Source: an uncultured Gammaproteobacteria bacterium | GTDB lineage: Bacteria > Patescibacteriota > Patescibacteriia > HK-STAS-PATE-3 | DNA length: 64,000 nucleotides | Assembly (NCBI GenBank): GCA_964637345.1 | Contig: CAZWTD010000002.1 | Coordinates: 6,426 to 70,425, forward strand | Direction: 5' to 3' | In this document: positions 12,265 to 38,428 of the stretch, in pieces | How positions within the stretch are numbered: the first letter of the stretch is position 1 | Layout: each line of letters opens with the position of its first letter | The notes under the pieces: model-generated | Seen by the model: only the letters and a program-made list of their open reading frames with translations | Databases searched by the model: none | Told to the model about the DNA's origin: nothing | Made by a program: the position numbers and the translations under genes

Positions 12265-13299
12265 CTAGATTGAATGTCCGTCTTTTGGGACAAAACGATA
12301 CGGACGGAACAGCGTCAGGATAAGGAAGCCCACGACGACGATCCAGGGGAACCAGCCGGCGACGCTATCGCAGCGGGCAAGGAAGTAGAGAACAAAGAGA
12401 CCCGACGCAAGTAGGAGTGGTACAATCCAAATCCAAAGGTCGGTTTTCGTCTCAATGAGTTTGTAGTACCCATAGAGGATGAGGAGGCTGCCGATGAGGA
12501 CGATGAGCCAGCCCCACCATCGGATATCCCAGCAGGATTTCGTGGTTTCGTTTGTGCTGGTCGGTAGAACTTCAGTATCGGTCCCTAGGACATCGCCGCT
12601 GTTCGTATTCGCGTTCGCGTTACTGTTTACTGCCGTGGTGTTTGCGAGAGAGGGGAGCGGGGCGTCGACAGCCGCAGCCCGAACGCGGACATCCGCGCTA
12701 CCAGTTACTGATCCAGACTGGGCGATAATACGGCCTTCGCCATCTCGGTTCGCGGTAAAGAGTCCTGTGGCGCTTACTGTTCCAATCGATCCTTCAAGTT
12801 TCCAGGAGACCACAAGATTCGTGAGGAGGTTGTTCATCCGGTCATAGGCCTTCGCTTCGAATTGGCGCCTCTCGCCCCGTCCGACAATTTCCGGGAGGGA
12901 GTTCGGATTAACGACGATGTGATCAACGGGGCCCGGGCGAACAGTTACGGTTGTGCTAACCGATGCGTTATTGAGTGTCGCGCGGACCTTCCAGCTTCCG
13001 AGTGAGCCGGCTGTGTAGACTGGACCGCTCAGGTTCCCGGTTGGGTCGGTTGTTGTGACTTGAGCCGCCCGAGAGGCGTCCCAGGTTTCTCCGGTATCCG
13101 GGTTTGTTGCGAAAATGGAGAATTCGATGGAAGAGCCAGCGTCGAGCGTTACCGTTGTCGGCGACAGCTTGAGAGTTTGGTCGTCATCTCCAGTTGCGGC
13201 ATTCGCGGGAATGGCGAGGGCGAGAAGTCCAAGGAAGAGCGCGAAGCTTCCAAGAAGACGAAAGCGCGTGCGGGGAGCGTGCGGCGTGTGCAGCATAGT
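12265..13299 (-). CDS. secreted Ig-like (Big-domain-like) surface protein with C-terminal membrane anchor and degenerate sorting-like motif
   Basis: Signal peptide FALFLGLLALAIPANA, beta-rich repeats, an NSNANANTNS linker, then ...DVLGTDTEVLPTSTNE... followed by two hydrophobic segments. Start is placed at MLHTP. Confidence 0.45.
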   Translation of the reverse strand, partial: TMLHTPHAPRTRFRLLGSFALFLGLLALAIPANAATGDDDQTLKLSPTTVTLDAGSSIEFSIFATNPDTGETWDASRAAQVTTTDPTGNLSGPVYTAGSLGSWKVRATLNNASVSTTVTVRPGPVDHIVVNPNSLPEIVGRGERRQFEAKAYDRMNNLLTNLVVSWKLEGSIGTVSATGLFTANRDGEGRIIAQSGSVTGSADVRVRAAAVDAPLPSLANTTAVNSNANANTNSGDVLGTDTEVLPTSTNETTKSCWDIRWWGWLIVLIGSLLILYGYYKLIETKTDLWIWIVPLLLASGLFVLYFLARCDSVAGWFPWIVVVGFLILTLFRPYRFVPKDGHSI

Positions 13300-13306
13300 G
13301 GTTGAA

Positions 13307-14002
13307 TTACTGTTCAGCGGTTGGCGTAAATGGCCGACCGTCAATGACAAGGCGATGGGAGGTGGAAAACATTGGTGCGCAAGTGAAGAGCGTCAGTTTT
13401 GGCTCCACGCTAGGGTTGAGTATTTCGGTTTGGTCGGGCGTAACAAGTCGCGTTTCCGCAATTTCGAAGTCGTACTCTTTCATCACTCCGTCCGTTTTCC
13501 AGTAGACAATGATCATGTCGCCCGCAGAAAGACGGTCGGCGAGAGCTAAGGTATTTGGTCCGGCGAGGTATTGAAAGCGATGGACTGTGAGTACGGTATT
13601 ACCTCCGCGATCTGGAGTTGAGGTGTTCGGAAGGCGCCAAGAGCCCCGGAAGAGCGAGTCCTCATTCTCTCCTTCAACGATCGGCATGTCAACACCAATC
13701 CTGGGAATAACGAGGCGGTTCTCTTTCGGAAGCGCCGATCCGATTTTTGGCAGCCGGCCGCTCGGGGCAGTTGTTGTTGAAGGGAGTTGGGTGAAATAGG
13801 GGAATTCCGGTTCTGGCTTCAGCAGCTCGTATCGAAGGATAGGAAGGAAGGGATAAAGGAGGACAAGAACTCCGAGGACAATGAGGCCGCTTGCTGCAAG
13901 TTTGATTGGATGAATACGAAAGCGGGGCCCTGGTCGGGCTGGGGCATTTTTTATCGCGGTGTCTTCGGTCTCCCCCAAGGCCGGACGCTGATCGTTCGGC
14001 AT
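13307..14002 (-). CDS. sortase-family transpeptidase
   Basis: N-terminal TM anchor, catalytic His region (VLTVHRF), the TLFTC active-site cysteine motif, and a downstream Arg. The gene sits immediately upstream, on the same strand, of the surface proteins that carry sorting signals. Confidence 0.8.
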   Translation of the reverse strand: MPNDQRPALGETEDTAIKNAPARPGPRFRIHPIKLAASGLIVLGVLVLLYPFLPILRYELLKPEPEFPYFTQLPSTTTAPSGRLPKIGSALPKENRLVIPRIGVDMPIVEGENEDSLFRGSWRLPNTSTPDRGGNTVLTVHRFQYLAGPNTLALADRLSAGDMIIVYWKTDGVMKEYDFEIAETRLVTPDQTEILNPSVEPKLTLFTCAPMFSTSHRLVIDGRPFTPTAEQ

Positions 14003-14005
14003 AAC

Positions 14006-14929
14006 TTAGGCGCTGGGGTGTTTCGAAAAAGGATAAAATGCGAACGTGGAGATTCCCGCAGTCAAAAGGATTGTCGCGAATACCACGAGGAGCCAGTCGA
14101 AAAATGTGATGCCGCTTGCGGGCAGTTCAGTCGAGGCCCCAAGAACCTGGCCCTGCCGCGCGGCAATCGTGATCTCTGTGCTCGCGGAGAGGGGAGTCGT
14201 TTGAGAGGCTGAGAGTCCAACCGAAATATTACGCGTGCCTGTTGTTGCGCTTGGATCAATTCGGAGATCAACAATGCGAGTTATCGTTTCTCCTGCGTGA
14301 AGTGTTGGAATCGTGATCGGCGCGATGGTAGTAAGGCCCTCGTTGGGATCTATGGTTAGGATCAAATCGCGAGCAGCGTCAGTTCCCGAATTTGCGATGG
14401 ACATTGTAAGTGGGGCGCTCGATCCGGCGACGAGAGTATCTCGAGTGATCGATAGTGTCAGCGCGAGCTTCGGGGAAGATAGCGTTGAAATGACGAGGCT
14501 TGTCGCAATAGCTTCGTTTTGATCAGAGTCCAGGGTAGCCTGAATCGTCAATGCGAGATCATTTTCAATTGTTTCATTAGCCTGAATACTGAACTGCGTT
14601 GTGTGGTTTCCAAGAGCTAGCGCTGGGAAGGACCAACGGGCACTTCGTTCAGAGCTTGCAACAACGCCAGGCTCATCGACAGCAACTATGCGAAGCCCTG
14701 TGGGAACCTTGAGTTGGAGTCGGGCGTCGGTAAGCGCATAGTCGGCTACGGAGTATGTGAGGGTAACGCGTTGTATCGCCCCGGCGTCTATTTCTCCCTC
14801 ACCGTCAATAGAAAGAGTAACCGCGGACACTGTTGTTGTCTTCGGTCGCTCAATCATTTGCGCCGACGCACACGAGGACCAGGTCGCGAGGAGTGTGCAG
14901 CAGGTAAAGAGGGTGATGAGCCGGCGCAT
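14006..14929 (-). CDS. cell-surface repeat protein with LPASG-type C-terminal anchor signal
   Basis: Lipoprotein-like or signal N-terminus (LFTCCTLLATWSSCASA), DUF11-like beta repeats, and a C-terminus reading QGQVLGASTELPASG followed by a hydrophobic stretch and the SKHPSA tail. Confidence 0.5.
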   Translation of the reverse strand: MRRLITLFTCCTLLATWSSCASAQMIERPKTTTVSAVTLSIDGEGEIDAGAIQRVTLTYSVADYALTDARLQLKVPTGLRIVAVDEPGVVASSERSARWSFPALALGNHTTQFSIQANETIENDLALTIQATLDSDQNEAIATSLVISTLSSPKLALTLSITRDTLVAGSSAPLTMSIANSGTDAARDLILTIDPNEGLTTIAPITIPTLHAGETITRIVDLRIDPSATTGTRNISVGLSASQTTPLSASTEITIAARQGQVLGASTELPASGITFFDWLLVVFATILLTAGISTFAFYPFSKHPSA

Positions 14930-14937
14930 CGGAGTAT

Positions 14938-17289
14938 TTACTCAAGAAGACGAGATCGGCGAAGGAGAGAGGCGCCGGCGACAAGGAAGCTTAGGCCAAG
15001 CAGCGCGAGGAGCGCATCGAGGGCCCCAGGTCCCGTTTCCGGAAGCGTGTCTTCCGCCCCAAGCACTTGCCCATTTGTTGCAGGTGTTTCATCGTCGTTC
15101 GTGTCTTCTGCGCCGAGAACTGAGCCCACAACAACGGCGACGCGCGCGGTCGAAGAAAGAGGATCAAGTCCATCCGCGCTCACGCGGGCAATATTGTCAT
15201 AAGTGCCTGCGCTCGCTGAGGGGGCAACCTTCGCCTCGTAGGTCGTTGTAATACTTTCTCCGGCCGGGATCGTACCAAGCATTTTCGCCATCGTTGTTGA
15301 ATCTGAGTCGGAGAAAGTGAAGGAGGTCGGTAGGGTATCGGTCAGAACAACATTCGTCGCAGCGTCAGATCCCGAGTTTTTTACTTTGACGGTGTAGGTG
15401 ACGACTGAACCCGGATGTGCTGATTCCCGATTCGCCGTTTTTTCAATTGTGAGCTTGGGTGAAGATGTAAGTGTCACGTCGGCGCTCGCCTCGAACGAAT
15501 CAACGCCCTTGGCCCGGACATTTGCGGTATTGATAACAATCGTATTGTCCTGAACAGTTGCGTCAACCTGTGTTGTCACTGAGAGTACGTACGAGTTTGG
15601 GGAAAGTGTTCCGAGGGACCACGTCACTGTCCGCGTCGCAGCGTCATAACTCGAACCGGAGCTTGCTTCAACAAAGGTGAGGTGTTCCGGGAGGGGATCG
15701 GAAACAATCACGTCTTCGGCATTTGCGTCGCTTACATTGAGCGTTAGGAAGTAGGTGATTGTTCCGCCAGCGGCTTGAATAGAGGCATTCGCTGATTTTT
15801 CAAGAGTGAGCTTTGGCGTAAGTGTTGGATCTCCTTCGTTTTCGCCACTCGCTTGGTAGTTTCCGAAGTTGAGGTTAGCAATTGTCTCTCCGAAGCCAAG
15901 CGAAATCGGGCCATGCATGGCGCTCGGCGTTCCCGGAAAGCTCTGGGTCCAGTCCGGCTGCATGACTTCTCGGACGAAGTAGGTTCCTGCGTAGGCCGGG
16001 GAGAAGGCATATGATCCGTCAACGGCTGTATGAGTTGTAGCGATTACCGTCGGGCTCCCGGTGAGGTTTCCGCCATTGCTGAAGGGGATGCCGAAACAGG
16101 CTAGGTCAAGGCGACTAATCACTCCGTCATGGTTCAAGTCAACGTTGGGGTTGAAGTTTTGGAACCCTTGCGTCCAGGCGACGAAATCTGACAGGTCAAT
16201 GATGTCGTTATCGTAGTAGTCGTATTCGTTGATATCTTGAGAGCAGGTCGTCAGAAGCTCGACAGTCCAGTGTTCGATGCCGTTTTCCTGGTTGTCCCAG
16301 TTGGTATTCTCATTTTCATCATTCCACTTGCCGCCGGAAATGGATCCCTGGCAGAGACCGAAGAAATGTTCAGTCGTCGCCGTTGAGCGGTTGTCATCCA
16401 GGTTTCGTTCAGGGTAGGGGACGTCCTGACTCGACGGAACTGGAGCAGGAAGAACTTGCTCAATGTCGGCGGTGTTCACGAGTCGTTCGCAGGTTAGAAC
16501 CGACGCGTCAATTGTTACCGTAAGCGAAATAGATCCAGTTTCGCCGATATCGAGCATTGGAATCGTCCAGGTCGCTACTCCGTTATTTACAGAGTCGGGG
16601 GTAGGCGTGGACGAGGCGATCGTTGCGCCGTGAGGAAGGACGTCATTCAGAACAACGTTGTAGGCCGGCCAGTTTCCTGTGTTTGCATAATTGATAACAT
16701 AGGTAATCCCCGTAAGTTTTTCCCCGTTCTCGGCAATTTTTTTATCAACTTGGAGATCAGGGTTTTTCGGGCAGAAACGTTGGGTTGTTGAAGTGGTATC
16801 TTCGACAATGCCGTCGTCCTCCGGAGTTGAAGCGGGTCCGACGCCACGAATATTGGCGGTATTCGTCACGGAAACGCATTCGGTCAGGGCGCCGAAGTCG
16901 AACGATGTGTCGAGGGAGACCGTCCCGTCGGTGTGCCCCGGGAGCGTGCCGATATTCCAGCTCACTGAATGAGAAACCGGATCGTAGGTTCCGCCATTCG
17001 AGGCGCTCATAAAACTAGACGTGGTGGGGAGCTTATCGGTGATGACGACATTGAAAAGCGTTATCCCTCCAGCGTTTTTGTACGATAAGACATACCCGGT
17101 GTCATTTGCTGGGTTGACGCTTTTTATAAGCTCCAGTGGGGAGGTGCCGGGGATAGCCGGTTCAGACGGAAGTACGGCCGCGGTCGTCAGGAGCGGCTGA
17201 GCGAGCAATCCAAAAAGAGTCGATACTGAAAGAATGAAGCGAGCGAGTCGCTGCCCCTTTCTCCAGTTTGATGCATATGATGGGTTCAT
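14938..17289 (-). CDS. large LPETG-anchored surface protein with DUF11 (conserved repeat) domains and dockerin-like Ca-binding motif
   Basis: Strong SD (GAGGAGG) before the ATG at 17289. Signal peptide, multiple LTYTxxVxNxGxxxAxNVVxTDxLP-type repeats, and NVDLNHDGVISRLDLA (dockerin/EF-hand-like). The C-terminus reads GQVLGAEDTLPETG followed by a hydrophobic stretch and RRSRLLE, a classic cell-wall sorting signal. Confidence 0.75.
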   Translation of the reverse strand: MNPSYASNWRKGQRLARFILSVSTLFGLLAQPLLTTAAVLPSEPAIPGTSPLELIKSVNPANDTGYVLSYKNAGGITLFNVVITDKLPTTSSFMSASNGGTYDPVSHSVSWNIGTLPGHTDGTVSLDTSFDFGALTECVSVTNTANIRGVGPASTPEDDGIVEDTTSTTQRFCPKNPDLQVDKKIAENGEKLTGITYVINYANTGNWPAYNVVLNDVLPHGATIASSTPTPDSVNNGVATWTIPMLDIGETGSISLTVTIDASVLTCERLVNTADIEQVLPAPVPSSQDVPYPERNLDDNRSTATTEHFFGLCQGSISGGKWNDENENTNWDNQENGIEHWTVELLTTCSQDINEYDYYDNDIIDLSDFVAWTQGFQNFNPNVDLNHDGVISRLDLACFGIPFSNGGNLTGSPTVIATTHTAVDGSYAFSPAYAGTYFVREVMQPDWTQSFPGTPSAMHGPISLGFGETIANLNFGNYQASGENEGDPTLTPKLTLEKSANASIQAAGGTITYFLTLNVSDANAEDVIVSDPLPEHLTFVEASSGSSYDAATRTVTWSLGTLSPNSYVLSVTTQVDATVQDNTIVINTANVRAKGVDSFEASADVTLTSSPKLTIEKTANRESAHPGSVVTYTVKVKNSGSDAATNVVLTDTLPTSFTFSDSDSTTMAKMLGTIPAGESITTTYEAKVAPSASAGTYDNIARVSADGLDPLSSTARVAVVVGSVLGAEDTNDDETPATNGQVLGAEDTLPETGPGALDALLALLGLSFLVAGASLLRRSRLLE

Positions 17290-17429
17290 GAGTACCTCCT
17301 CGTAAGTATTGAACGAATGAATCACGCGAAAATGTCTTTCACCGACGTTTTTAGGGTGAAAAGGAGCATCTCTAGCGTGTCAGGCATCATAGCATAGCCC
17401 TTGGTTTCGCCACAAACAGCCGTATTCTG

Positions 17430-19637
17430 TCAATCGAGTTCAGGAATCCGACGTCGGAAGAGCGTAACACCCAGTAACAGGCTCGTGAGTCCGAATGCGA
17501 GAATGCCATACTCGATTGGACTGGCTCCGGTTTCGGTCAGCGCTCCGAGCACTTGTCCGCGTTGGACAGTAATCGCTGCAGTGGCGGTCAATTGGGCAAC
17601 ATTATCTCCAACCACGCGTGCCGTGTTGATGAGTTGGCCGGCAGCGGCCGAGGCGCTCACGCGGACAGCGACGTGAATAATTCGTTCGTGGCCGGGGAGC
17701 AAATCCCCGAGCCTCCAGGTTGCCGTGCTTCCAGAGTAGTCAACAAAGGAGAGGCCGGCCGGAACTTCGTCGGTTAGCCGGAGGTTATACGCCGGGGCCA
17801 GTCCGTCGTTCCTGACGCTAAGGGTGTAGGTGACAACGCCCCCAATCGGAACAGTTGAGCGGTCGGCGACTTTTGTCAGAGTGAGCTTTGGACTTGGCGT
17901 ATTCGTTGGAATCACCAAACTTGAGACCTCAACCGTTGCTTTTGCATTCCGCGTTGGATGGTTTGAAGAGCTAACCGTAGCCACATTCTGATAACTTCCT
18001 GCTTTTGTGTCAGTCTTCACGACGACTGCATAGGTAAGGGTCCGGCTCGTTTCAGCTTTGAGCGTGCCAATCGGGAAGGAGCGATCAGTCGCTCCATTGT
18101 CGAGATAAACGAAGCCGGTCGGCAGAACATCCGAGACGACAACCTGAAGCGCGTCGCCGCTTCCCGTGTTTGAAACGACAATGGTGTAGAGGATTGTTTC
18201 ACCGGGCTTCACCGAGTCTTTGTCAGCAGATTTCACGATCGTGAGTTTCGGTGCGCCGCCTACCGTCAGCGATGCTGATGCACTCACCGGCTGTGCGTTG
18301 TCAGCCGAGAGCGTCGCGGTGTTATTGAGTTTTGCGCCAGGTTGCGTTCCAGCAGCGACTCGCGTCTGGACAGTCACGCTACCGCTGTCGCCTGGTTGGG
18401 CGCTTCCGAGCGTCCAGTTGATTTCGCGCGTTGGCGCGTTGTATGCGCCGCCGTTGCTCGCGCTGACAAAAGTGAGGCCCTCGGGCAGAGGATCGCGCAA
18501 GAGTAGTCCGTTGACTGCCTCGGTTCCGCTGACTGACCACGCGAGCGTGTAGGTGACAAGCTCGTTCGGAAGCGCAAGCGTCGGCGCTACCTCTTTAGTG
18601 AGGTGGAGCATCGCCAAGCTCGTGACAGTTGTGCTCGCGGAAGCCTGAACAGGTTTTAGCTCACTGGCCGAGAGGGTCGCGGTATTGGTAATCACTGTCC
18701 CGTTCGCGAGAGGGGAGATAATCTCTGCTGTCCACTGGACGCTGCCGTGGGCCCCGGGAGCTTGGTTACCCAAATTCCAGCGAAGTTCGTTCAGGTTGGG
18801 ATCGTACACGCCGCCTTGTGAGATTGTTGCAAAGATGAGATTGGCTGGAATTGGGTCGGTAAGAACCAGGTCGTATGCCGGACCGCTTCCGCTGACATTC
18901 CACGCAAGGGTATAGGTTAGCGTTGTTCCTGGAGCGGCAATTTCCGCGCTCACGGTTTTTTCTAGACCGATAGAAGGGATGCTTTCAATAGTTGTCGTTG
19001 CCGAATCAGACACTGGGTCAAGCCGGTCAGCGTCAATTGTTGCGGTATTTGTAATGACTGTCCCATTGCCGACCAGAGTATTGATCGTCCCGGTCCAGGT
19101 GAGCATCCCGTGTGCGCCGGATGCTTGGGTTCCGAGCGTCCAGGTAATGGTTGCAGTCCCAGAATCGTAGATCCCGCCGTTTTCGGCTTGCACGAAGCTC
19201 AGCTCTGTTGGAACGGGGTCTGTTACGACAACATTCGTGGCAGTTCCGTTTCCGCCAATGGACCAGTGAAGGGTGTACGTGAGCAAGTCGCCAGGATGTG
19301 CAAGGCTAAGGTCGACCTGTTTGTCGAGGTTGATTGTTGGGTGATTGGCTGGACTTGGGAGCGGAGCGGACGCAGTTGCTGGGGGTTCCGGCGACGTTTC
19401 AGGCTCTTCCGATTGGGTGGTTGATGGTTCCGTAGTTGAATTCGACCGTAGAGCGGGAGTGAGGTTATCCGCGAAGACGGCGGTCTCGGATTCTGGAATA
19501 GCCGCCTCTGTTGCTTCGAGGGTTTTTCCATACGCGAACCCAGGAAGGCAGGCTTGAAGAACAAGACTGACAAGTGCAATCACGGCCATTTTTCGACCGA
19601 AGCGCTGGCGGGAACGGAACACAGAGAAGTTCGGCAT
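17430..19637 (-). CDS. large DUF11-repeat surface protein with LTETG-type C-terminal anchor signal
   Basis: Start moved to MPNFSVFRS (ATG 19635-19637), which precedes a signal peptide. There are about 6 tandem DUF11-like repeats (LTYTLHWSIGGNGTATNVVVTDPVP...). The C-terminus reads RGQVLGALTETG followed by a hydrophobic stretch and FRRRIPELD. Confidence 0.7.
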   Translation of the reverse strand: MPNFSVFRSRQRFGRKMAVIALVSLVLQACLPGFAYGKTLEATEAAIPESETAVFADNLTPALRSNSTTEPSTTQSEEPETSPEPPATASAPLPSPANHPTINLDKQVDLSLAHPGDLLTYTLHWSIGGNGTATNVVVTDPVPTELSFVQAENGGIYDSGTATITWTLGTQASGAHGMLTWTGTINTLVGNGTVITNTATIDADRLDPVSDSATTTIESIPSIGLEKTVSAEIAAPGTTLTYTLAWNVSGSGPAYDLVLTDPIPANLIFATISQGGVYDPNLNELRWNLGNQAPGAHGSVQWTAEIISPLANGTVITNTATLSASELKPVQASASTTVTSLAMLHLTKEVAPTLALPNELVTYTLAWSVSGTEAVNGLLLRDPLPEGLTFVSASNGGAYNAPTREINWTLGSAQPGDSGSVTVQTRVAAGTQPGAKLNNTATLSADNAQPVSASASLTVGGAPKLTIVKSADKDSVKPGETILYTIVVSNTGSGDALQVVVSDVLPTGFVYLDNGATDRSFPIGTLKAETSRTLTYAVVVKTDTKAGSYQNVATVSSSNHPTRNAKATVEVSSLVIPTNTPSPKLTLTKVADRSTVPIGGVVTYTLSVRNDGLAPAYNLRLTDEVPAGLSFVDYSGSTATWRLGDLLPGHERIIHVAVRVSASAAAGQLINTARVVGDNVAQLTATAAITVQRGQVLGALTETGASPIEYGILAFGLTSLLLGVTLFRRRIPELD

Positions 19638-19952
19638 GGGTGCTCGAAGGTTAATCAAGATGATAATGAAAAAGCCAACGAAAGAGGACAAGAAAAAACG
19701 AAGAGACAGAAACTCCGTTTTGTTCGCTTTCGTTGGCTTTTCCCCGTCCTCCGCGGGTTTTTCAAGAAAGAACAAGTGCGAAAATGTGCGCGATCCCTCC
19801 GAAGGTGCGATGAATGTTTTGGGTGTTCTTTTCACAGGAAACCTTAGCAATCACTTTCGTTTGTGTCAACGTTAGCACAACATACTTTTCGTCCCTGTCA
19901 AGATAAAAAGCAAAGAGGGGAATCCGAGATTCTTCGTTGGAAAAATGAAGTT

Positions 19953-19961
19953 TGCTATACT
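19953..19961 (+). promoter_or_regulatory. putative extended -10 (TGcTATACT) promoter element for manC
   Basis: TG-n-TATACT lies about 50 nt upstream of the manC ATG, in a comparatively AT-rich divergent intergenic region. Confidence 0.3.
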
Positions 19962-20010
19962 ATTTAGGCACTCGACATACTCGAAGGACCATTCTTGAAT
20001 CCGGAATCGT

Positions 20011-24081: not shown

Positions 24082-26322
24082 CTATGCGTCTTCGTTCAGG
24101 CTTATTCGATAGATGAGGTTGCCGTTGAGGATATAGGCGCTCTCGCCGTTGTCTTCAATCGCGAAGTCGCGAAGATCAGTAAAGGCTGGGGAGGTGAATT
24201 GAGCCTGGAATTGCCCTGACTTCGAGAAGAGGACAAGGCGGCGACCACTCGCATCGAGAACGTAGATTCGATCCGAATTTTCACTTGTCCAAAGCTTTAC
24301 TCCGGACGCTAAGGGAGGATCGACTGGCCCGAGACTGAAATCATCAAGCCGGCCCTGGGTAAAGCGTCGAACTCCGCCGTCCTGGTTAAGCACGTATACT
24401 GACCCATCAACCGCGAGTGATACGCCGTTGACCAAGCTGACATCAGAGTCTTGAATCCAAGCGGAACCAGTACCGAAACCGTTCGTTCCAAGTTGATAGC
24501 GAAAGATTTGATTATTTTTCGTGTCGAGGAGATAGATTCGCGATTGATAGGTTGCGAGCGCGGTGATTGCCCGGTCCGCATTTACTGAGGTGAAATCTAA
24601 AGAGCGCGTTCGGTCGGTTGACAGCGAAAGGTCAAAGAACGCGTCGAGTCCATCCGAAAAAACAAGGCTTTGTCCGATGCTTGCTCCGAAACGAAGAGGT
24701 TCCGAAGTATCATTCGGATTCTCAATCAGCGTTGAGGATCCGTCGCCCGGGTTGATACGGAGCGCCTGATCAGCTCCGTTGCCAGCGAAGAGTTCTCCGT
24801 TACGGAAGACGAGAAATTCGGAACCCTGACCGGTAACGACGTTACCCACGTCAGCAACTTGGGTCGGGGAGTCAATGGTCACTAAGTGACGAGTTCTTTC
24901 GCGGATTTGGTTGACTGACTCAGCGAGGTTTTGCAGAGTAGAATCATTCGGGTGTTGTTCCGGCTCTAAGGTTGCCAGCAAGTCAACCGCTTCAGCTATT
25001 AAACGGCCAGCTCGGGTTTCGTCGTCATACGACAGGGCCGCTTCTGCATCAAAGGTCTTTTGCTCGATAGCGGTAATCGTTTCTTGACGAACACTCGTGG
25101 TTGTTTCCGATTCATTGCGTCGGCCCATCGAGACGATGCTTTGCGCAAAGAAAAAGAGAAGCGCGACAATAGCCAGGAAAAGAGCTTTCCTGGTAAAGGA
25201 CCACCTCGGGAAGCTCGCAACGAGCCGTGCAATTGCGTCGGCAATTCGTCTAGGTATAGTCTTCGCTGAGGCCAAAACCGTTCCGCGTTGTCGAAAAACC
25301 GTTTGAACGCTTTTGGCGACTGCTCGTCCGCCTTGGAGGGGAAGCGCGGTGAGTGATGATGCGGCCGGACGTCGAGTCTGCTGGGGTAAAGTAGGAGACT
25401 CGGTCCGAGATCGATCTCCGCCGCGTTGCACGGGTTGATTACCGCGAACGTTTGCCGCCATCTGTTGGGCGCCCCGGAGAAGCGTTCCGAGGAAGCGGCG
25501 CGCAACAAGCCAAAGTGACGGAGTAAGAAGACGCTGCGTTGCTTCTTCTCGGGCGATTAAATCGTCCATTGATGATCGAGTTTGAACCGTCAGCAAAGTC
25601 GGCATCGGCTGAGCGACAGACGCGGGGGTTTCAAGTTCCTCACGAACGGGTACTGCGTGGGCGAGGAGCGCAGCAAACGCGGTTCGCGGAGGCGCTTCAG
25701 CGAGGAGTTCGTCAAGGTGTCGAACCGCATCAAGCGGCGGTCGATCAAGAACAATGCGCTTGAGTTTTTCGAGCGAAAGGTAGTCGAGGAGGCTTGGAGT
25801 GAAGAATACGAGGTAGTCGTCTTCTTGGAGTTCGCCAGTGATAATGTTCGAGAAGATTTTCAGCGGGTTAACTTTGCGTTCTTCGGGTCCGGCTGAATCA
25901 ACAATGTCGACAATTCTTCCCCGGTGGACGAGCGTTGCGTGGATCTGGCCAATATGGGTCAGGATGAGCGTTTGATCCTTCAATACCCCGAGAATGATAT
26001 TGAAATGGTCGAGCCAGTCGGTCATTCCGCCCTCAATCAGTCGCTTGAGCTGTTCGTTTACGTGTTGGAGGGCCTGCTCAAAGGCGGTCTCAAGGCGAAG
26101 TTGAGGGCCCTGATAATAGGCCCGGCGCATCTCATCCTGGAGTATTTCAATGAGCTCCGTGTTCATCGGAGCCCTGGAGCCAATTTCGACAACAAGAAAG
26201 AGCCGCCCGAAGGTTCTTAGCTCGAGCGGTGTCGGCTGGGCAACGGAAACATGGACTGTTGAAACGCTCTTCTCTGGGTCATAGAGAAGGAAGGTTTCGA
26301 GTTCGTGGGACAGTTGTGGCAT
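24082..26322 (-). CDS. bitopic membrane protein: cytoplasmic N-terminal domain, one TM helix, extracellular beta-propeller-like repeat domain
   Basis: Start moved to MPQLSHE (ATG 26320-26322). TM helix ALFLAIVALLFFFAQSIV. The C-terminal half carries about 6 repeats of the [IV]Y[VL]LD/N..G....F type, as in NHL/YVTN propeller blades. The N-terminal domain was not recognised. Confidence 0.5.
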   Translation of the reverse strand: MPQLSHELETFLLYDPEKSVSTVHVSVAQPTPLELRTFGRLFLVVEIGSRAPMNTELIEILQDEMRRAYYQGPQLRLETAFEQALQHVNEQLKRLIEGGMTDWLDHFNIILGVLKDQTLILTHIGQIHATLVHRGRIVDIVDSAGPEERKVNPLKIFSNIITGELQEDDYLVFFTPSLLDYLSLEKLKRIVLDRPPLDAVRHLDELLAEAPPRTAFAALLAHAVPVREELETPASVAQPMPTLLTVQTRSSMDDLIAREEATQRLLTPSLWLVARRFLGTLLRGAQQMAANVRGNQPVQRGGDRSRTESPTLPQQTRRPAASSLTALPLQGGRAVAKSVQTVFRQRGTVLASAKTIPRRIADAIARLVASFPRWSFTRKALFLAIVALLFFFAQSIVSMGRRNESETTTSVRQETITAIEQKTFDAEAALSYDDETRAGRLIAEAVDLLATLEPEQHPNDSTLQNLAESVNQIRERTRHLVTIDSPTQVADVGNVVTGQGSEFLVFRNGELFAGNGADQALRINPGDGSSTLIENPNDTSEPLRFGASIGQSLVFSDGLDAFFDLSLSTDRTRSLDFTSVNADRAITALATYQSRIYLLDTKNNQIFRYQLGTNGFGTGSAWIQDSDVSLVNGVSLAVDGSVYVLNQDGGVRRFTQGRLDDFSLGPVDPPLASGVKLWTSENSDRIYVLDASGRRLVLFSKSGQFQAQFTSPAFTDLRDFAIEDNGESAYILNGNLIYRISLNEDA

Positions 26323-26450
26323 GTCGCAGACGTCGGCCGGCCCAAGTGGTACGAAGCGGGCCAGCTTGCGGTTGAAAACGACCTTGAGTATACTGAAAAT
26401 ACGCAAAAACGACAAGCCGCTCGGCGAGTGGCTGACGTAGCCGCACTCCC

Positions 26451-27077
26451 ATGCTTGATACCCTCTTTGGATCACGAACCCGCGCGAAACTCCTCCGACT
26501 CTTCTTTGCTCATCCGAAAGAGCCCTTTTACGTGCGTGAGATTTGCCGGAAACTCGACGAGCACTTGAATGCAGTTCGGCGAGAACTTGTTCATCTCACG
26601 GACCTCGATCTCATCCGTGAAGAAGAGCGCGATCATAAAAAGTACTACTCGGTGAACACGAATTTTGTTCTCTATCCGGAGCTTCGTGCGCTCGTCCTCA
26701 AAACCCAGGTTATGTTTCAGCGTAACTTCCTTGAGGCGGTACGGGGTATTGGGTCCGTAAAGCTCCTCGTCCTTACCGGGGTTTTTGTCGGGCTTCCCGA
26801 CACCTTGACTGACGTGCTCATTGTCGGAAAGATTAATCGCCCAAAACTTCGGAGGCTTCTAGGCTTACTTCAGGAACATGTTGAGCAGCCGATTCGCTAC
26901 ACCCTTTTTTCGACCCGCGAGTTTACGTATCGAAACGATTTAACGGATCGTTTTATCTATCACATTCTCGAAAACAAAAAGATTGTTATGGTTGATCATA
27001 TTGATGCGATGCTTAAGCGGGCGGCGCTGAAAAAAGCCGACGAGGCGAAACGTGAACCAGAAACAAAGAATTCTTAA
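26451..27077 (+). CDS. putative winged-helix DNA-binding protein
   Basis: The N-terminus (SRTRAKLLRLFFAHPKEPFYVREICRKLDEHLNAVRRELVHLTDLDLI) resembles ArsR/wHTH regulators, and the C-terminal domain is unknown. It is divergent from the propeller protein. Confidence 0.4.
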   Translation: MLDTLFGSRTRAKLLRLFFAHPKEPFYVREICRKLDEHLNAVRRELVHLTDLDLIREEERDHKKYYSVNTNFVLYPELRALVLKTQVMFQRNFLEAVRGIGSVKLLVLTGVFVGLPDTLTDVLIVGKINRPKLRRLLGLLQEHVEQPIRYTLFSTREFTYRNDLTDRFIYHILENKKIVMVDHIDAMLKRAALKKADEAKREPETKNS

Positions 27078-33043: not shown

Positions 33044-33475
33044 ATGTTTATCGGCGAATATTATCACGCGGTTGATGAAAAAGGGCGGCTCGCCATCCCG
33101 ATTAAGTTCCGGGAAGAGCTGTCGAAAGGGGCAGTCGTTACGCGCGGGCTCGATAACTGTCTTTTCCTCTACACCCAGAAAGAGTGGGAAGCCCTCGCCG
33201 GAAAACTCGCCAATTTGCCAATCGCCCGAGCGAATACCCGGGCTTTTTCGCGGTTAATGCTTGCCGGGGCGATGGACGTCGAAATCGACAAGCAGGGGAG
33301 AGTCGTCCTCCCTGATTATTTGCGGAAGTTTGCCGGGTTAAAGAAGAAAGTCGTTGTGGCTGGGCTCTATAACCGCCTTGAACTTTGGGATGAACTGGCC
33401 TGGAGCCGCTACAAGGCCTCAACGGAGAAGACAAGCAGTGATATCGCCGAAGCGCTCGGAGAACTCGGCGTCTAA
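33044..33475 (+). CDS. mraZ: transcriptional regulator MraZ
   Basis: Two tandem MraZ/SpoVT-AbrB-like repeats. The start codon is ambiguous between 32975 and 33044. It is the first gene of the dcw cluster. Confidence 0.8.
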   Translation: MFIGEYYHAVDEKGRLAIPIKFREELSKGAVVTRGLDNCLFLYTQKEWEALAGKLANLPIARANTRAFSRLMLAGAMDVEIDKQGRVVLPDYLRKFAGLKKKVVVAGLYNRLELWDELAWSRYKASTEKTSSDIAEALGELGV

Positions 33476-34433
33476 GCGCCCTTCAAAAAATCAAACCGGA
33501 CATATTCCGGTTCTCCTGACGGAAACCCTCGCCTGGCTCAGTCTAAGGCCTGGCGACCACAGCCTCGATCTCACGGTCGGCGGAGGTGGTCACGCGGCCG
33601 CGCTCCTTGAAGCGACAGGTCCAGCAGGAAAGCTTATCGGCTTTGACGCTGATCCAGACACGCTCGCGATCGCTCGCGAACGGCTCCGGGCCTACGGCCG
33701 CCGAGTCCATCTCATCCACGCCAACTTTCGCGATTGTCGCGCCATACTCAATGATCAATTTCCAGACTTTCGACCTCGCGCTGTTCTACTTGACCTTGGC
33801 CTCTCTTCATTGGCACTCGGGGCAGCTCATTCCAGATTTTCTTTCCTAGGTAAGGGACCGCTCGATTTCCGCTTTGATCCGACCCGAGAGGGGACGACCG
33901 CCGCGGATCTCGTGAATACCGCTCGCGAAGATGAGCTTATCGAGATGTTCCGGAGCTACGGCGAGGAGCCAGAAGCGAAGCGGATTGCCCGGGCGATTAT
34001 CGCTCGGCGCAAGGAAGCGCCGATTCACTTCACTCAGGAGCTCAGTGAAGTCATTGTCGCTGCGCTTCCAAAAGGCCGGCGCCCCGGACGCATCCATCCG
34101 GCAACGCGAAGCTTCCAGGCGCTGCGGATCGCCGTGAACGACGAACTCGGAGCCCTTGAACAGGTTCTCCCTGATCTCCTCGAAGTAGTCCCGAAGGGTG
34201 GACGGCTCGCAGTTCTGAGCTACCACTCGCTCGAAGACCGGATCGTGAAGCATTTCTTCCGGAATGAAGCGCGCGACTGCCTTTGCCCGGCCGAACAGCC
34301 GACCTGCACCTGCGGACATCGCGCCAAGCTCCGCGTCCTTACCCCGCATCCCATTATTCCATCTCCGACTGAACAAACTCACAACCCGCGATCCCGGAGC
34401 GCCAAGCTCCGCGTCGCAGAAAGGATAGCCTGA
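33438..34433 (+). CDS. rsmH: 16S rRNA (cytosine1402-N4)-methyltransferase RsmH (MraW)
   Basis: HIPVLLxE N-terminal motif, SAM-binding DLTVGGGGHA, and a C-terminal region typical of RsmH. Probable GTG start inside the 3' end of mraZ. The track ORF at 33354 has no ATG. Confidence 0.8.
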   Translation: MISPKRSENSASKRPSKNQTGHIPVLLTETLAWLSLRPGDHSLDLTVGGGGHAAALLEATGPAGKLIGFDADPDTLAIARERLRAYGRRVHLIHANFRDCRAILNDQFPDFRPRAVLLDLGLSSLALGAAHSRFSFLGKGPLDFRFDPTREGTTAADLVNTAREDELIEMFRSYGEEPEAKRIARAIIARRKEAPIHFTQELSEVIVAALPKGRRPGRIHPATRSFQALRIAVNDELGALEQVLPDLLEVVPKGGRLAVLSYHSLEDRIVKHFFRNEARDCLCPAEQPTCTCGHRAKLRVLTPHPIIPSPTEQTHNPRSRSAKLRVAERIA

Positions 34434-34789
34434 TGAGCCTTCTGACCACCCGAACCCGACGAACAGTAGCCCAAGATCTCGCTGCAAATCTTGTAACGAC
34501 GATTAAGGTACGCATGACAGCGCTTACGCTTGTTGGGATTTTTTTAAGCTTAGCGGGCGGAATTACCTATCTCACGTTGATTAACCGGACCGCGACAACG
34601 GGTTTTGAGATTAAAGCGCTCGAGCAGCGAGTCAGCGAGCTCCGCGATACAAACCGAAAGCTTGAACTTCAGGCAACCCAGCTTCGTTCGCTTTCAACAG
34701 TCGAGTCAGCGACCGAGTCGCTCGGACTGACCCAGGTCGCCCAGATAGAGTACCTTCCGACCGGGACGACCGCAGTCGCGCAAAAGTAA
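34433..34789 (+). CDS. ftsL: FtsL-like cell-division protein
   Basis: Small protein with one TM helix and a coiled-coil (ALEQRVSELRDTNRKLELQATQLR). It sits in the canonical position between rsmH and ftsI. Confidence 0.5.
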   Translation: MSLLTTRTRRTVAQDLAANLVTTIKVRMTALTLVGIFLSLAGGITYLTLINRTATTGFEIKALEQRVSELRDTNRKLELQATQLRSLSTVESATESLGLTQVAQIEYLPTGTTAVAQK

Positions 34790-34795
34790 GCACCT

Positions 34796-36550
34796 ATGTC
34801 CGTCCCTCGACGCGGTTCCCGGCCAACGAAGCCACGTCGGTCTTTGGATCGGCTGACAGTCGCCGTTATTGCGCTTTTTAGCTTTGCGGCGATCATTATC
34901 TTCCGTTTATTCACTCTCCAGGTTCTCGCGCACGGGTTTTATGAAACCCTAGCCGCTGGACAGTATGAAATTGCTGAGCGTTTAGTCCCGACCCGAGGAG
35001 ATATTCTTGTTCGCGATCGTTTTTCGGGCGACACCTTATTTCCCCTCGCAACAAACGAGGATTTATATTTAGCGTACGCGGTTCCGAAACGCGTGGAGGA
35101 TCCGGCTGGGGCCGCGGAGAAGCTGGCCGACATGCTTGAGCTTCCAGTCGAGGAGATTCTTCCGCGTTTAGAAAAGTCTGACGATCTGTACGAGCCCTTG
35201 AAACGAAAGGTGACCGAGGAAACGAAAACGGCGATTGATGAGCTGAATCTTCGGGGAATTGAATTTGCCCGAGAGAGTAATCGCTATTATCCGGAAGGCG
35301 AAATCGGGAGTCACATTCTTGGTTTTGTGGGCTACGACGGGAATGAACGAAAAGGTCAGTATGGACTCGAAGCTGCGTTCCAAGAGGAGCTCGCCGGGAA
35401 GGCCGGGATGTTGACCGCCGAGCGCGATGCGGCCGGTCGTTGGATTACTGTTTCGGATAAAATGCTTGAAGAGGCTCAAGACGGAGATGATTTGATTCTC
35501 ACAATCGATCGGACCGTTGAGTATACGGTGTGCACAAAGCTCTCTGAAGCTGTTCAGAAGCACGGCGCAACGGGCGGGAGCGCAATAGTTATGGATCCAA
35601 ACACCGGCGCAATCCTCGCGATGTGCGGATATCCAGACTATGATCCGAATGAGTACAATAAAGTTGAAAACATCAACGCCTTCATCAATCCTTCGCTCCA
35701 GTCCTACGAGCCGGGTTCGATTTTTAAGCCGATCACTATGGCGGCCGCGCTTGACCAGGGCAAGGTAACACCGGCGTCAACCTATGAGGATACTGGAAGC
35801 GTTGAGATCGCGAACTTCACGATTAAAAACTCTGACGGGAAGGCCCACGGGACCGCGACGATGACGCAGGTACTTGAGGAGTCACTGAACACCGGGGCAA
35901 TCTATGCGGCCGAACAAGTCGGGCCCGAGAAGTTTCTCGAGTATGTTCAGAAATTCGGCTTTGGGGAAAAAACGGGAATTGAGCTTGGCGGTGAATCGGC
36001 TGGAACTCTCGGCGAACTCCCAACCGGAAAAGAAATCTATATGGCTACCTCTTCGTTCGGCCAAGGGTTGACAACGACACCTTTGCAGATGGCCGCAGCG
36101 TACGCGGCGATCGCCAACGGCGGGAAACTCTATACACCATACCTAGTGGACGAGATTGTGAAACCGAACGACTATCGCGTGAAAACTGAACCGACGCTTG
36201 TTCGCCAAGTGATTGATGCAAAAACGGCAACGACGCTATCGGCGATGCTGGTGAATGTTGTGAAAGGGTCGCACGGGAGACGGGCCGGCGTTCCGGGTTA
36301 CTATATCGCCGGGAAAACCGGAACAGCCCAGATTCCCCGAAAGGACGGACCGGGCTACGATCCGAATCGGACCATCGGCTCTTTCGCCGGCTTTGGGCCG
36401 GTTGAAAACCCGAAGTTCGTTATGGTGGTAAAAATTGAGGATCCGAAAGACGTGCGCTTTGCGGAAAGCACGGCCGCCCCGCTCTTCGGCGAGATCGCGC
36501 AGTTCCTTATGAACTATTACGAAGTTCCGCCTAGCGCACCAAGGGAGTAA
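34796..36550 (+). CDS. ftsI: penicillin-binding protein (class B transpeptidase, FtsI/PBP2-like)
   Basis: N-terminal TM, dimerisation domain, SxxK (SIFKP), SxN, and KTGT (KTGTAQ) motifs. Confidence 0.85.
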   Translation: MSVPRRGSRPTKPRRSLDRLTVAVIALFSFAAIIIFRLFTLQVLAHGFYETLAAGQYEIAERLVPTRGDILVRDRFSGDTLFPLATNEDLYLAYAVPKRVEDPAGAAEKLADMLELPVEEILPRLEKSDDLYEPLKRKVTEETKTAIDELNLRGIEFARESNRYYPEGEIGSHILGFVGYDGNERKGQYGLEAAFQEELAGKAGMLTAERDAAGRWITVSDKMLEEAQDGDDLILTIDRTVEYTVCTKLSEAVQKHGATGGSAIVMDPNTGAILAMCGYPDYDPNEYNKVENINAFINPSLQSYEPGSIFKPITMAAALDQGKVTPASTYEDTGSVEIANFTIKNSDGKAHGTATMTQVLEESLNTGAIYAAEQVGPEKFLEYVQKFGFGEKTGIELGGESAGTLGELPTGKEIYMATSSFGQGLTTTPLQMAAAYAAIANGGKLYTPYLVDEIVKPNDYRVKTEPTLVRQVIDAKTATTLSAMLVNVVKGSHGRRAGVPGYYIAGKTGTAQIPRKDGPGYDPNRTIGSFAGFGPVENPKFVMVVKIEDPKDVRFAESTAAPLFGEIAQFLMNYYEVPPSAPRE

Positions 36551-37096
36551 ACGCTTGGTAGAGAAGGAGGTGGGTCATGGAGGAGTATCGCTTCTTTGAG
36601 GGAGAAGCGCTTCACTGGGTGACCGGACGGATTGAACGGTATTGCGCCTGGTATCGAATTCGGCGCCTACCTGATGGCTCTGAAGAATGGACCCGCTGTC
36701 CTGGAATCACGTTCCTCGGACAAGCCTGCGCCCCCGTTCACCTGAACGCGGGCGCTTTTCGAAAAAAAAGAACCCGGAGGAGCGGAGCCCATGCAGGAAT
36801 TCTGCAGTGGGATCCGTCCTCCGGGAAACGGCGACTCGTCGAGGCCTACCTCGGATTGGCAGTCGAGAGCCGCCCTGATAGGGGACCGACGCGGACTTAC
36901 CGCGAGGGTTGGGAATGCGGCATTCCGCGTCGGTTCGAGTCCTTGGACAGATTTGAGCGGCTTCTCCCCGCAGAGTTCCTATCTCATATCCATCCGACTC
37001 GACAACAAAGAGCAGAAGGAGTCTACTCGGTTTTCGGTAACATGTCAAGGGCGGAAGAAACAATTCGTGGATTGTCTAGCCAATGGTATACTATCA

Positions 37097-38428
37097 ATGG
37101 CTACTATGACGAAAGAATCGTTGCTCCGAAAACTCGAAAATCTCTTAGCTTGGCTGAGCCTACGGATCATTCGGAAATATCGTCCGGATATTATTGCCGT
37201 GACCGGCAGCGTTGGAAAGACCGGAACAAAGGATGCGATTTTTTGCGTCCTCGCTGGTTCGTTTGGCGTTCGGAAAAGTGAAGGAAACTTAAACAATGAA
37301 CTTGGTTTACCACTTTCGATTTTGGGTGAACGATCAGGCGGGCGGAATCCCTTCGCGTGGCTTCGTATCCTCGGGAAGGCCTTTCGTTTTCTCCTCCAGT
37401 CTCGGCCCTTTCCCGAACTGCTCATCCTTGAGATGGGAGCAGATCACCCCGGCGATCTCGAGCGCTTAACCCAGATTGCTCGGCCGCGCGTGAGCGTGAC
37501 CACGGCCGTCGCGCCGGTTCATACGGAATTTTTTTCCTCACTCGAGGCGCTCGCTGCAGAGAAGGCGACGCTCGCTCGGCGGACCGAGCCCGACGGATAT
37601 ACCATCTTGAACGCCGATGATCCGGTGGTCATCGGGTTCCGTGACAAAACGGATGCGCGGGTGCTTTCCTATGGCTTTTCGCCAGAAGCGGATCTTCGGG
37701 CAACTTCGTTTGACGTCATTCGTTCAACGAAGGAACATATTCCGAGCGGATTGCGCTTTATCTTATCGTATGAGGGAAAGCACGTTGAAGTAACGCTGCA
37801 CGGAGCGCTTGGTCGTCCTGCAGTGAGCGCCGCCTTAGCCGGCGCAGCTGTTGGTATCGTTTACGGCCTTGAGTTGTCCGCAATAGCCGAAGCGCTCGGA
37901 CATCTCCAAATGCCGAAAGGCCGCCTTCGACCGCTCCGAGGGATTAATCAGTCTTTGCTCATCGACGACACCTACAACGCAAGCCCCCGCGCCGCAATCG
38001 CCGCACTGGATGTTTTGGGTGACCTGGCTGAAGCGCCCGCGTCCGATCGAGGAGCGAACTCCGGTCGGCGGATTGCCGTGTTTGGGAACATGGCCGAACT
38101 CGGGCATTTGAGCGAGGCGGGACATCAAGAGGTCGGGGAGCATGCTGCAAAAATCTGCGATCTCCTCATTACGGTCGGGGACCTCGCGAAGGGGATAGGC
38201 GCGGGCGCGGTTAAGGCGGGGTTCGCCGCGAAGCGCGTCGCGAGCTTTGAGGATCAAAGTTCGGCTCTACATCTTCTTCGTCAGGAAATTGGTCCGAAGG
38301 ATCTCATCCTTATTAAAGGTTCTCAATCGGCTCGGATGGAAAAGCTGACCGCTGCGCTGCTTGAAAACCCGGCCGACGCGCAACTCCATCTTGTGCGCCA
38401 AGGGCCGGAGTGGACGCGGCCGCATTGA
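37097..38428 (+). CDS. murF: UDP-N-acetylmuramoyl-tripeptide--D-alanyl-D-alanine ligase
   Basis: Mur-ligase P-loop AVTGSVGKTGTKD at residue about 35, with central and C-terminal Mur ligase domains. The start was moved to MATMTKESL. The N-terminal domain appears short compared with E. coli MurF. Confidence 0.8.
   Translation: MATMTKESLLRKLENLLAWLSLRIIRKYRPDIIAVTGSVGKTGTKDAIFCVLAGSFGVRKSEGNLNNELGLPLSILGERSGGRNPFAWLRILGKAFRFLLQSRPFPELLILEMGADHPGDLERLTQIARPRVSVTTAVAPVHTEFFSSLEALAAEKATLARRTEPDGYTILNADDPVVIGFRDKTDARVLSYGFSPEADLRATSFDVIRSTKEHIPSGLRFILSYEGKHVEVTLHGALGRPAVSAALAGAAVGIVYGLELSAIAEALGHLQMPKGRLRPLRGINQSLLIDDTYNASPRAAIAALDVLGDLAEAPASDRGANSGRRIAVFGNMAELGHLSEAGHQEVGEHAAKICDLLITVGDLAKGIGAGAVKAGFAAKRVASFEDQSSALHLLRQEIGPKDLILIKGSQSARMEKLTAALLENPADAQLHLVRQGPEWTRPH

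Follow-up and report, generated by a model that had tools for sequence, protein, structure and literature searches.

The DNA analysed here, called the window throughout, is a stretch of 64,000 nucleotides from contig CAZWTD010000002.1, which derives from an uncultured bacterium of the candidate phyla radiation (CPR)/Patescibacteria. It contains a cassette of five consecutive genes for a sortase, its candidate substrates and a membrane protein, all on the minus strand between 12265 and 19850 in the open reading frame (ORF) listing. Numbered in the order of transcription, these are g1 (19637 to 17430, 735 amino acids), g2 (17289 to 14938, 783 amino acids), g3 (14929 to 14006, 307 amino acids), the sortase g4 (14002 to 13307, 231 amino acids) and g5 (13296 to 12265, 343 amino acids). 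The length of g1 is counted from the ATG at the start of its signal peptide; the 806-residue protein of an earlier annotation (the original prediction) is a mechanical ORF that opens at a TTG at 19850. The same annotation had located a TLFTC sortase at 13307-14002, and the 231-residue minus-strand ORF at this position passes both PF04203 and TIGR01076. It had also placed the sortase directly upstream of the other four genes on the same strand; the strand is indeed shared, but the sortase is the fourth gene of five. No housekeeping gene lies within the block, as had been stated. The intergenic gaps are 140 nt (g1-g2), 8 nt (g2-g3), 3 nt (g3-g4) and 10 nt (g4-g5), and therefore at least g2 to g5 appear to form a single operon. 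Both large proteins had been credited with signal peptides and strong ribosome-binding sites: the signal-peptide-like starts are there, but among the cassette genes a strong site (GAGGAGG) precedes only the ATG of g2 at 17289. The promoter of the cassette presumably lies in the divergent intergenic region between g1 and a manC-like gene (19638..20010). A scan for promoter and terminator consensus sequences gave weak matches only, with counts at the level of shuffled sequence, and is uninformative.

By hidden Markov model (HMM) matches, catalytic triad and predicted fold, g4 is a member of the sortase superfamily (peptidase C60), with transpeptidase activity predicted. It scores 70.5 bits against PF04203 (cut-off 26.6) and 62.9 bits against TIGR01076 (cut-off 39.35). 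His141 (in TVHRF, 13574-13588), Cys208 (in TLFTC, 13379-13393) and Arg217 (in SHRLV, 13346-13360) align in HMMER with the catalytic residues of solved class C sortases (HR / TLVTC / HR). These three residues and Arg142 are invariant in an alignment of 47 relatives, which settles the question, raised with the original prediction, of whether the TLFTC ORF keeps the His/Cys/Arg triad. In the AlphaFold (AF2) model, which has a predicted local distance difference test (pLDDT) score of 86.4, one N-terminal transmembrane (TM) helix (residues 35-57, 13832-13900) is joined by a linker to a sortase barrel; the catalytic domain spans residues 96-225 (13328-13717). The model superposes on solved sortases at 1.7-2.4 Å and shows the eight-stranded β-barrel. 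A C-terminal TM anchor is characteristic of class C sortases. No such segment is present in g4: its one TM segment, placed at residues 35-53 in the TM scan, is N-terminal, and the protein ends 6 residues past the catalytic domain. The active site of class C sortases is occluded by an N-terminal lid with a DP[W/F/Y] motif (PMC8225981). DPW, DPF and DPY are not present in g4, and the linker carries [ED]PxFPY (residues 64-69, 13796-13813; pLDDT ~86), conserved in the clade as [ED]-P-x-[FYVA]-P-Y. This motif lies about 30 residues before β1, where the class C lid is found, and by its position it may be a lid analogue.

Among solved sortases, the pilus enzymes of class C come nearest to g4, with 28-30% identity (phmmer, Foldseek). 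All NCBIfam class models that match g4 nevertheless stay below 60 bits, with cut-offs of 140-165: class C (NF033745) 59.6 bits against 160, class E (NF033747) 53.6 against 160, class D 52.2 against 165, SrtD 52.1 against 140 and the GN model 30.6 against 158. The class A, B and F models give no match to g4. Class E sortases are said (Kattke and colleagues, 2016) to read the Ala of LAXTG with a Tyr in the β3/β4 loop (GHY). This position is Leu124 in g4 and L, I, V, F or Y across the CPR clade; GHY is kept in the actinobacterial-like members of the alignment (P0054-58), and one orthologue (P0019) carries the NCBI name class E sortase. Because all class models fall far below their cut-offs and the class E Tyr is absent, g4 is not assignable to classes A-F. 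Its detectable relatives number only 58 among 5.8 billion proteins, and those with a name all come from Candidatus Nomurabacteria, Candidatus Kerfeldbacteria or metagenome-assembled genomes of the 'Patescibacteria group'. It is from these relatives that the analysis took the CPR affiliation of the window.

Genomic context was taken for ten of these relatives, seven in cassette loci and three in loci with a solitary sortase. The cassette is kept in the seven other CPR loci (L001, L002, L004, L006, L008, L010 and L011), one of which, L002, is in a closed 1.08-Mb Candidatus Nomurabacteria genome (CP060223). The order there is one to three large proteins with CLIPPER domains (formerly DUF11, PF01345), a smaller CLIPPER/immunoglobulin (Ig) protein, the sortase and a homologue of g5. 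Some of the large proteins carry VWA or SpaA domains. In L004 (497-6709), L008 (1079-5554) and L010 (3379-7254) the first gene encodes a giant of 1291-2070 amino acids with VWA, SpaA_2/SpaA_4, SdrD_B and CLIPPER domains; over all relatives the cassette proteins range from 216 to 2070 amino acids, with or without VWA/SpaA. As in the window, the cassettes adjoin uppP and usually also fpg and manC/mltG. The synteny comparison proposed with the original prediction thus finds seven loci in which the cassette occupies the chromosomal position that it has in the window. Horizontal acquisition was considered and set aside, given that the G+C content of the cassette (0.53-0.555) is inside the range of the window and that distant relatives keep the flanking synteny, with uppP/fpg at one end of the cassette and manC/mltG/AA-kinase at the other.

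Signal-peptide-like N-termini are seen by eye and hydropathy in g1, g2, g3 and g5. In g1 the signal peptide is followed by a spacer rich in Pro, Ser, Thr and Glu and by five tandem CLIPPER Ig-like domains (PF01345 258 bits over five stretches, E = 9e-78; TIGR01451 187 bits; TIGR04226, an isopeptide-forming fimbrial domain, 79.5 bits). A search of g1 against PDB sequences gave no match. In g2, two CLIPPER domains, an SdrD_B-like domain and two more CLIPPER domains follow one another (PF01345 177 bits over four stretches, E = 2e-52; TIGR04226 44 bits). The SdrD_B-like domain with its insert (residues 320-480, 15850-16332) is sub-threshold. The insert resembles a dockerin or EF-hand pair of Ca-binding loops (DIIDLSD... 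DLNHDGVISRLD), which is kept in the L001 orthologue; against NCBIfam dockerin_GC it reaches 17 bits, below the cut-off of 29. The orthologues of g2 in L001 and L002 are L001_1 and L002_1, and g1 has no counterpart in these two closest orthologous cassettes.

A recent crystallographic study (Costa et al., 2025; PMC12617251) shows CLIPPER to be a CnaA-like domain with a Lys-Asn isopeptide bond and a catalytic Asp, and it typically builds the stalks of fibrillar adhesins. In a repeat alignment using the residues of PDB 9IFR, the columns of Lys (first strand), catalytic Asp and Asn (last strands) are kept in all nine CLIPPER repeats of g1 and g2, and an isopeptide bond is therefore predicted in each of these domains. 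g3 differs from the two large proteins. It has two Ig-like domains that score above cut-off as CARDB (26.4 bits) and NPCBM_assoc (28.6 bits), its DUF11 score of 18.2 bits is below the cut-off of 24.6, and the Lys/Asp/Asn triad is not present in either domain in the repeat alignment. The description of three DUF11/Big-repeat proteins accordingly applies strongly to g1 and g2, but not to g3.

All three proteins end in a tripartite C-terminal signal as judged by pattern and hydropathy. That of g1 (17430..17558) consists of GQVLGA (17541-17558), the pentapeptide LTETG (17526-17540), a hydrophobic segment and RRR before the stop codon. That of g2 (14938..15126) reads GSVLGAED...GQVLGAEDT-LPETG, with the two G-x-VLGAED copies at 15109-15126 and 15055-15072 and LPETG at 15031-15045, and continues with a hydrophobic segment and RRSR before the stop codon. 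In g3 (14006-14152), GQVLGASTE-LPASG (motif at 14135-14152) precedes a hydrophobic segment with a conserved F-x-DWL and a weakly basic tail with one Lys. Peptides spanning the sorting signals of the cassette include VLGAEDTLPETGPG, VLGALTETGAS, STELPASGIT, GQVLGAEDTLPETGPGA, RGQVLGALTETGASP and ASTELPASGITF. When all ORFs of at least 80 amino acids in the 64 kb were scanned by pattern and hydropathy, L[PT]x[TS]G with a hydrophobic segment was found in g1 to g3 and in one unrelated false positive. The TIGR01167 model (LPXTG_anchor) accepts g2, at 23.9 bits with a cut-off of 15.9.

Signals occur at the same place in the orthologous cassettes, with the pentapeptides LPETG, LTETG, LSPTG, LAETG, LATTG, LAATG and LPATG. 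At the g3 position L002 has a g3-type LSPTG, and the other six cassettes all have the canonical form, L(P/A)xTG plus an Arg-rich tail. Three g3 orthologues compared directly all have L-x-x-[TS]-G at the same position (LPASG, LTETG, LSPTG), 3-6 residues after VLGA; identity is ~44% over their last 48 residues and ~14% over the ectodomain. In the orthologous cassettes most signals stand behind a G-x-V-L-G-[AETV]-[EDST] motif, of which some proteins have 2-3 copies; it was noted in the window and in L001, L002, L004, L006 and L008. The giants of L004, L006, L008, L010 and L011 end in the shorter VLG-LATTG or VLAATG, in which the pentapeptide is fused directly to VLG, and VLGA-LTETG of g1 is arranged likewise. 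Each cassette holds two types of signal, the VLG-LATTG type and the VLGAE-x-L(P/A)xTG type. The G-x-VLG motif also stands about 20 residues before the first TM helix of the g5 family in most cassettes; within each locus it is confined to cassette proteins, apart from a few chance matches inside hydrophobic segments.

g5 is a conserved polytopic membrane partner of this system that had gone unnoticed. In its AF2 model a signal peptide is followed by two Big_2-type Ig domains (12679-13176; Big_2 26.3 bits, pLDDT >90), a disordered linker rich in Asn and Thr with the motif GDVLGT (12580-12597), and three TM helices (residues 260-280, 287-307 and 316-329); the topology is deduced from the presence of a signal peptide and the number of helices. 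A fold search gives the tandem Big_2 domains of Leptospira LigA as the closest solved fold, and otherwise generic tandem-Ig matches. In an alignment of 17 representatives (A3), the membrane module (12268..12534) has invariant Cys255, Trp263, Cys309 and Pro317. The outer end of the third TM helix reads W-F-P-W in g5 (12343-12354) and [F/V/W/Y/A]P[W/Y] in the 17 representatives with the Pro invariant, although for three residues a chance match is possible. No LPXTG-like pentapeptide is conserved among these representatives, and g5 is not matched by TIGR01167. The idea of g5 as a fourth substrate is ruled out by the three TM helices and the missing conserved pentapeptide. Of the four proteins for which C-terminal anchor-like signals had been claimed, g1 to g3 have them, but the Big-like protein, g5, ends in three TM helices and its orthologues lack LPXTG.

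A full-length g5 profile run against 1.84 billion representatives was swamped by giant Big_2 repeat proteins, from which about 14 full-length family members were picked out, and a full-length word-index search returned 6 matches only. The membrane module alone, a short and compositionally biased query, gave no match in the 5.8 billion database, not even to itself. An HMM of the module matches one ORF per cassette locus, always the gene after the sortase (8 loci counting the window), and has no match in L007, L009 and L012, where the sortase stands alone.

The position of g5 recalls SafA, a small actinobacterial membrane protein that is encoded directly after the housekeeping sortase and protects it via an exoplasmic FPW motif (Ramirez et al., 2022; PMC9282373). 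Like SafA, g5 is an integral membrane protein whose gene immediately follows that of the sortase (after 10 nt in the window, and at the same position in 8 of 8 loci), and its conserved [F/V/W/Y]PW, at the predicted exoplasmic end of a TM helix, may correspond to the FPW of SafA. Unlike SafA, g5 is a protein of 343 residues in which a signal peptide and two Big_2 Ig domains precede three TM helices, and unlike the partner sortase of SafA, g4 has by eye no AXA signal-peptidase site in its TM segment that would need masking. As a hypothesis, SafA is the closest functional analogue that can be named for g5; g5 would be an analogue at most, likened by position and motif.

The original prediction is thus supported in part, and its core holds, namely that the locus is a dedicated sortase-substrate cassette of a candidate-phylum bacterium and not a set of scattered LPXTG proteins, here with three candidate substrates, a sortase and a membrane partner: the signals are confined to the cassette, g2 to g5 are tightly packed, and the arrangement recurs in seven CPR loci. 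The explanation that we favour, with moderate confidence in it as a whole, is that g1, g2 and probably g3 are isopeptide-stabilised fibrillar adhesins anchored to the wall by g4, that g5 is a sortase accessory, and that the cassette has been inherited vertically within the CPR/Patescibacteria. In the mechanism that we infer, g1, g2 and probably g3 would be exported via the Sec pathway and briefly held in the membrane by their C-terminal hydrophobic segments. Membrane-anchored g4, with Cys208, His141 and Arg217, would cut L(P/T)x(T/S)G behind its fourth residue, Thr in g1 and g2 but Ser in g3, and transfer the substrates to a peptidoglycan precursor, which would attach them covalently to the wall. 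The window encodes a class B penicillin-binding protein (PBP) transpeptidase, a Mur ligase, MraW, MltG and UppP; peptidoglycan is therefore presumably made via lipid II, the usual sortase acceptor. g1 and g2 would form rod-like stalks of five and four CLIPPER domains, each locked by a Lys-Asn isopeptide bond, and as fibrillar adhesins they might plausibly grip a host cell or a surface. g5 would remain in the membrane as a stabiliser, positioner or substrate-presentation factor for the sortase, and, if it resembles SafA of the actinobacteria in this respect, may act via the [F/V/W/Y]-P-W motif on its exoplasmic side.

Much of this agrees with known wall-sorting systems, in which a membrane-anchored Cys transpeptidase with a His/Cys/Arg triad acts on substrates with a signal peptide, a C-terminal pentapeptide, a hydrophobic segment and a basic tail, and in which Ig-repeat stalks are stabilised by isopeptide bonds. 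The second position of the pentapeptide (P, A, T or S across the orthologues) overlaps with the class E preference for LAXTG: the window has LTETG, LPETG and LPASG, and the orthologues LAETG, LATTG and LAATG in addition to LPxTG. The cassette differs from these systems in the distance of g4 from the curated class models and in the Leu124 at the place of the class E Tyr. It also differs in the union of enzyme, substrates and a conserved polytopic partner in one operon, in the G-x-VLG-x-E motif before the pentapeptide, and in its host, a CPR bacterium with a poorly understood envelope. With the fibrillar adhesins built of CLIPPER domains (PMC12617251), g1 and g2 share the tandem CnaA-like Ig domains with the Lys/Asp/Asn signature, and the order of signal peptide, stalk and sorting domain; across the cassettes, as in those adhesins, CLIPPER co-occurs with SdrD_B, SpaA and VWA domains. 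An adhesive head, by contrast with those adhesins, is not identifiable in g1 or g2.

Several observations weigh against the wall-anchored adhesin explanation. We know of no CPR sortase with biochemical evidence, and the solved sortases nearest to g4 by sequence and Foldseek are pilus-polymerising class C enzymes. Neither g1, with LTETG, nor g3, with LPASG and its one-Lys tail, is matched by TIGR01167. The best-conserved part of g3 is its membrane segment, which is odd for a signal that is to be discarded. No adhesive tip domain is recognisable in g1 or g2, and VWA tips occur only in the orthologous cassettes. The analogy between SafA and g5 consists of gene position and a three-residue motif only, and is put forward as a hypothesis.

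The relation to class C enzymes raises the possibility of a sortase-built pilus or fibre, in which g4 would polymerise the cassette proteins, the large ones serving as tip or shaft and the small one encoded beside it forming the shaft or the base. g4 might anchor the polymer too, as SrtC2 of Actinomyces oris can, and a single sortase that both polymerises and anchors is already known (PMC11131087). The cassette resembles the class C pilus islands (PI-1 with SrtC1 of group B Streptococcus, spaABC-srtA of Corynebacterium diphtheriae, fimQPsrtC1 of A. oris) in that the sortase is encoded amid its own substrates, in the nearest solved structures and in the CnaA-like isopeptide domains of the subunits, for which g1 and g2 match the fimbrial model TIGR04226. 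In the orthologous cassettes, a tip-like giant with VWA, SpaA_2/SpaA_4 and CLIPPER domains, then a single-CLIPPER LPXTG protein of ~217 amino acids and then the sortase reproduce the layout of a Gram-positive pilus island. The two kinds of sorting signal in each cassette and the location of [ED]PxFPY at the position of the class C lid point in the same direction. Unlike the pilus islands, however, the cassette shows no pilin-motif Lys and no E-box: YPK(N) or an E-box was found in none of 12 substrate proteins from 5 loci by regular-expression scans, which divergent motifs could escape, and no Lys is conserved in the ectodomain of the three g3 orthologues. g4 has neither the DP[WFY] lid motif nor a C-terminal TM segment, and its class C score is far from the cut-off. 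g1 and g2, multi-repeat proteins of 735-783 amino acids, are much larger than typical shaft pilins and have the size of monomeric fibrillar adhesins, and close relatives of g4 are solitary, without substrates, like housekeeping enzymes. On this evidence we regard polymerisation as unlikely.

A permanent membrane location of the C-terminal segments, at least that of g3, would account for its unusual conservation: g3 and g5 would then sit in a membrane complex with the sortase, and only proteins of the g1/g2 type, or none, would be processed. The higher identity of the last 48 residues of g3 than of its ectodomain, the one-Lys tail, the failure of TIGR01167 to match g1 and g3, and the presence of the same G-x-VLG-x-E motif in g5, which clearly stays in the membrane, all favour this. 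Yet none of the three g3 orthologues has lost or shifted its L-x-x-[TS]-G, every orthologous cassette but L002 has the canonical signal with an Arg-rich tail at the g3 position, and the tight linkage to the sortase is most simply read as a substrate relationship. Permanent anchoring is thus judged distinctly improbable, and g3 is probably a substrate, or else a membrane-retained component. It is very unlikely, finally, that the cassette specifies a surface layer (S-layer) or another non-adhesive envelope lattice tethered to the wall by the sortase. Cell surface layers have reportedly been described in CPR bacteria by Luef and colleagues in 2015, a study to which PMC4736985 refers. DUF11/CLIPPER domains occur in archaeal S-layer-associated porins and aggregation proteins, but archaeal DUF11 of the porin type mostly lacks the isopeptide signature (PMC12617251), whereas all nine domains here keep it. 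HMM scans detected no SLH or similar domain, and the great variation in size and domains among the relatives (216-2070 amino acids) fits adhesins better than a lattice. The content of isopeptide CLIPPER domains, as far as sequence can tell, points to fibrillar adhesins rather than to an S-layer lattice.

A bolder reading would see here a CPR-specific sortase system outside classes A-F, with the g5 family as its dedicated polytopic Ig-domain partner in the membrane, the shared G-x-VLG-x-E as the mark of its clients and, as its product, an isopeptide-stabilised covalent fibre or adhesin array by which these episymbiont-type bacteria would attach to hosts; taken as a whole, we consider this doubtful. 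The sortase-substrate operon as such is known. What is lineage-specific is the unclassifiable sortase clade, the polytopic partner, the shared pre-anchor motif and the non-canonical pentapeptides.

A large part of bacterial diversity belongs to the CPR/Patescibacteria, whose cultivated members live attached to other microbes. To our knowledge, the attachment devices characterised in them so far are only type IV pili and Pam pili. The latter were described recently and are assembled by donor-strand exchange rather than by a sortase (10.64898/2026.03.03.709456). More than half of the CPR genomes encode sortases (PMC6744442), and papers on single genomes mention them too. Literature searches for CPR sortase substrates, LPXTG proteins or this cassette found no description, in agreement with the earlier statement that such loci are rarely characterised in candidate phyla. 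CLIPPER proteins have been surveyed in Bacillota, Actinomycetota, Pseudomonadota, Bacteroidota, Acidobacteriota, Chloroflexota and archaea, and the CPR is not among the phyla named in the accessible part of that survey (PMC12617251). Within the literature searched, this version of the cassette is therefore not previously described. It provides conserved candidates for study, namely the enzyme, two or three surface proteins with isopeptide stalks and the unnoticed membrane partner, and makes approachable the question of what the CPR cell wall covalently displays, and how. The expected biochemistry is conventional; a known system is extended into a poorly known lineage, and no new principle is involved.

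Other genes of the window include a fragment of a division and cell-wall cluster (33354-38428) with the MraW methyltransferase, the class B PBP transpeptidase and a MurF-like Mur ligase. Because a long extension at its N-terminus makes the ligase ORF overlap the one before it, the ligase probably begins at an internal start codon. Two large ORFs have no Pfam match. One of them (24082-26475, minus strand, 797 amino acids) has a hydrophobic segment close to the middle of the protein and, in its C-terminal half, repeated Gly/Asp-rich strands that resemble β-propeller blades. The other (51390-52703, 437 amino acids) has a basic N-terminal region, a TM anchor and an acidic C-terminus rich in Ser, Thr and Asp, and is probably an envelope protein.

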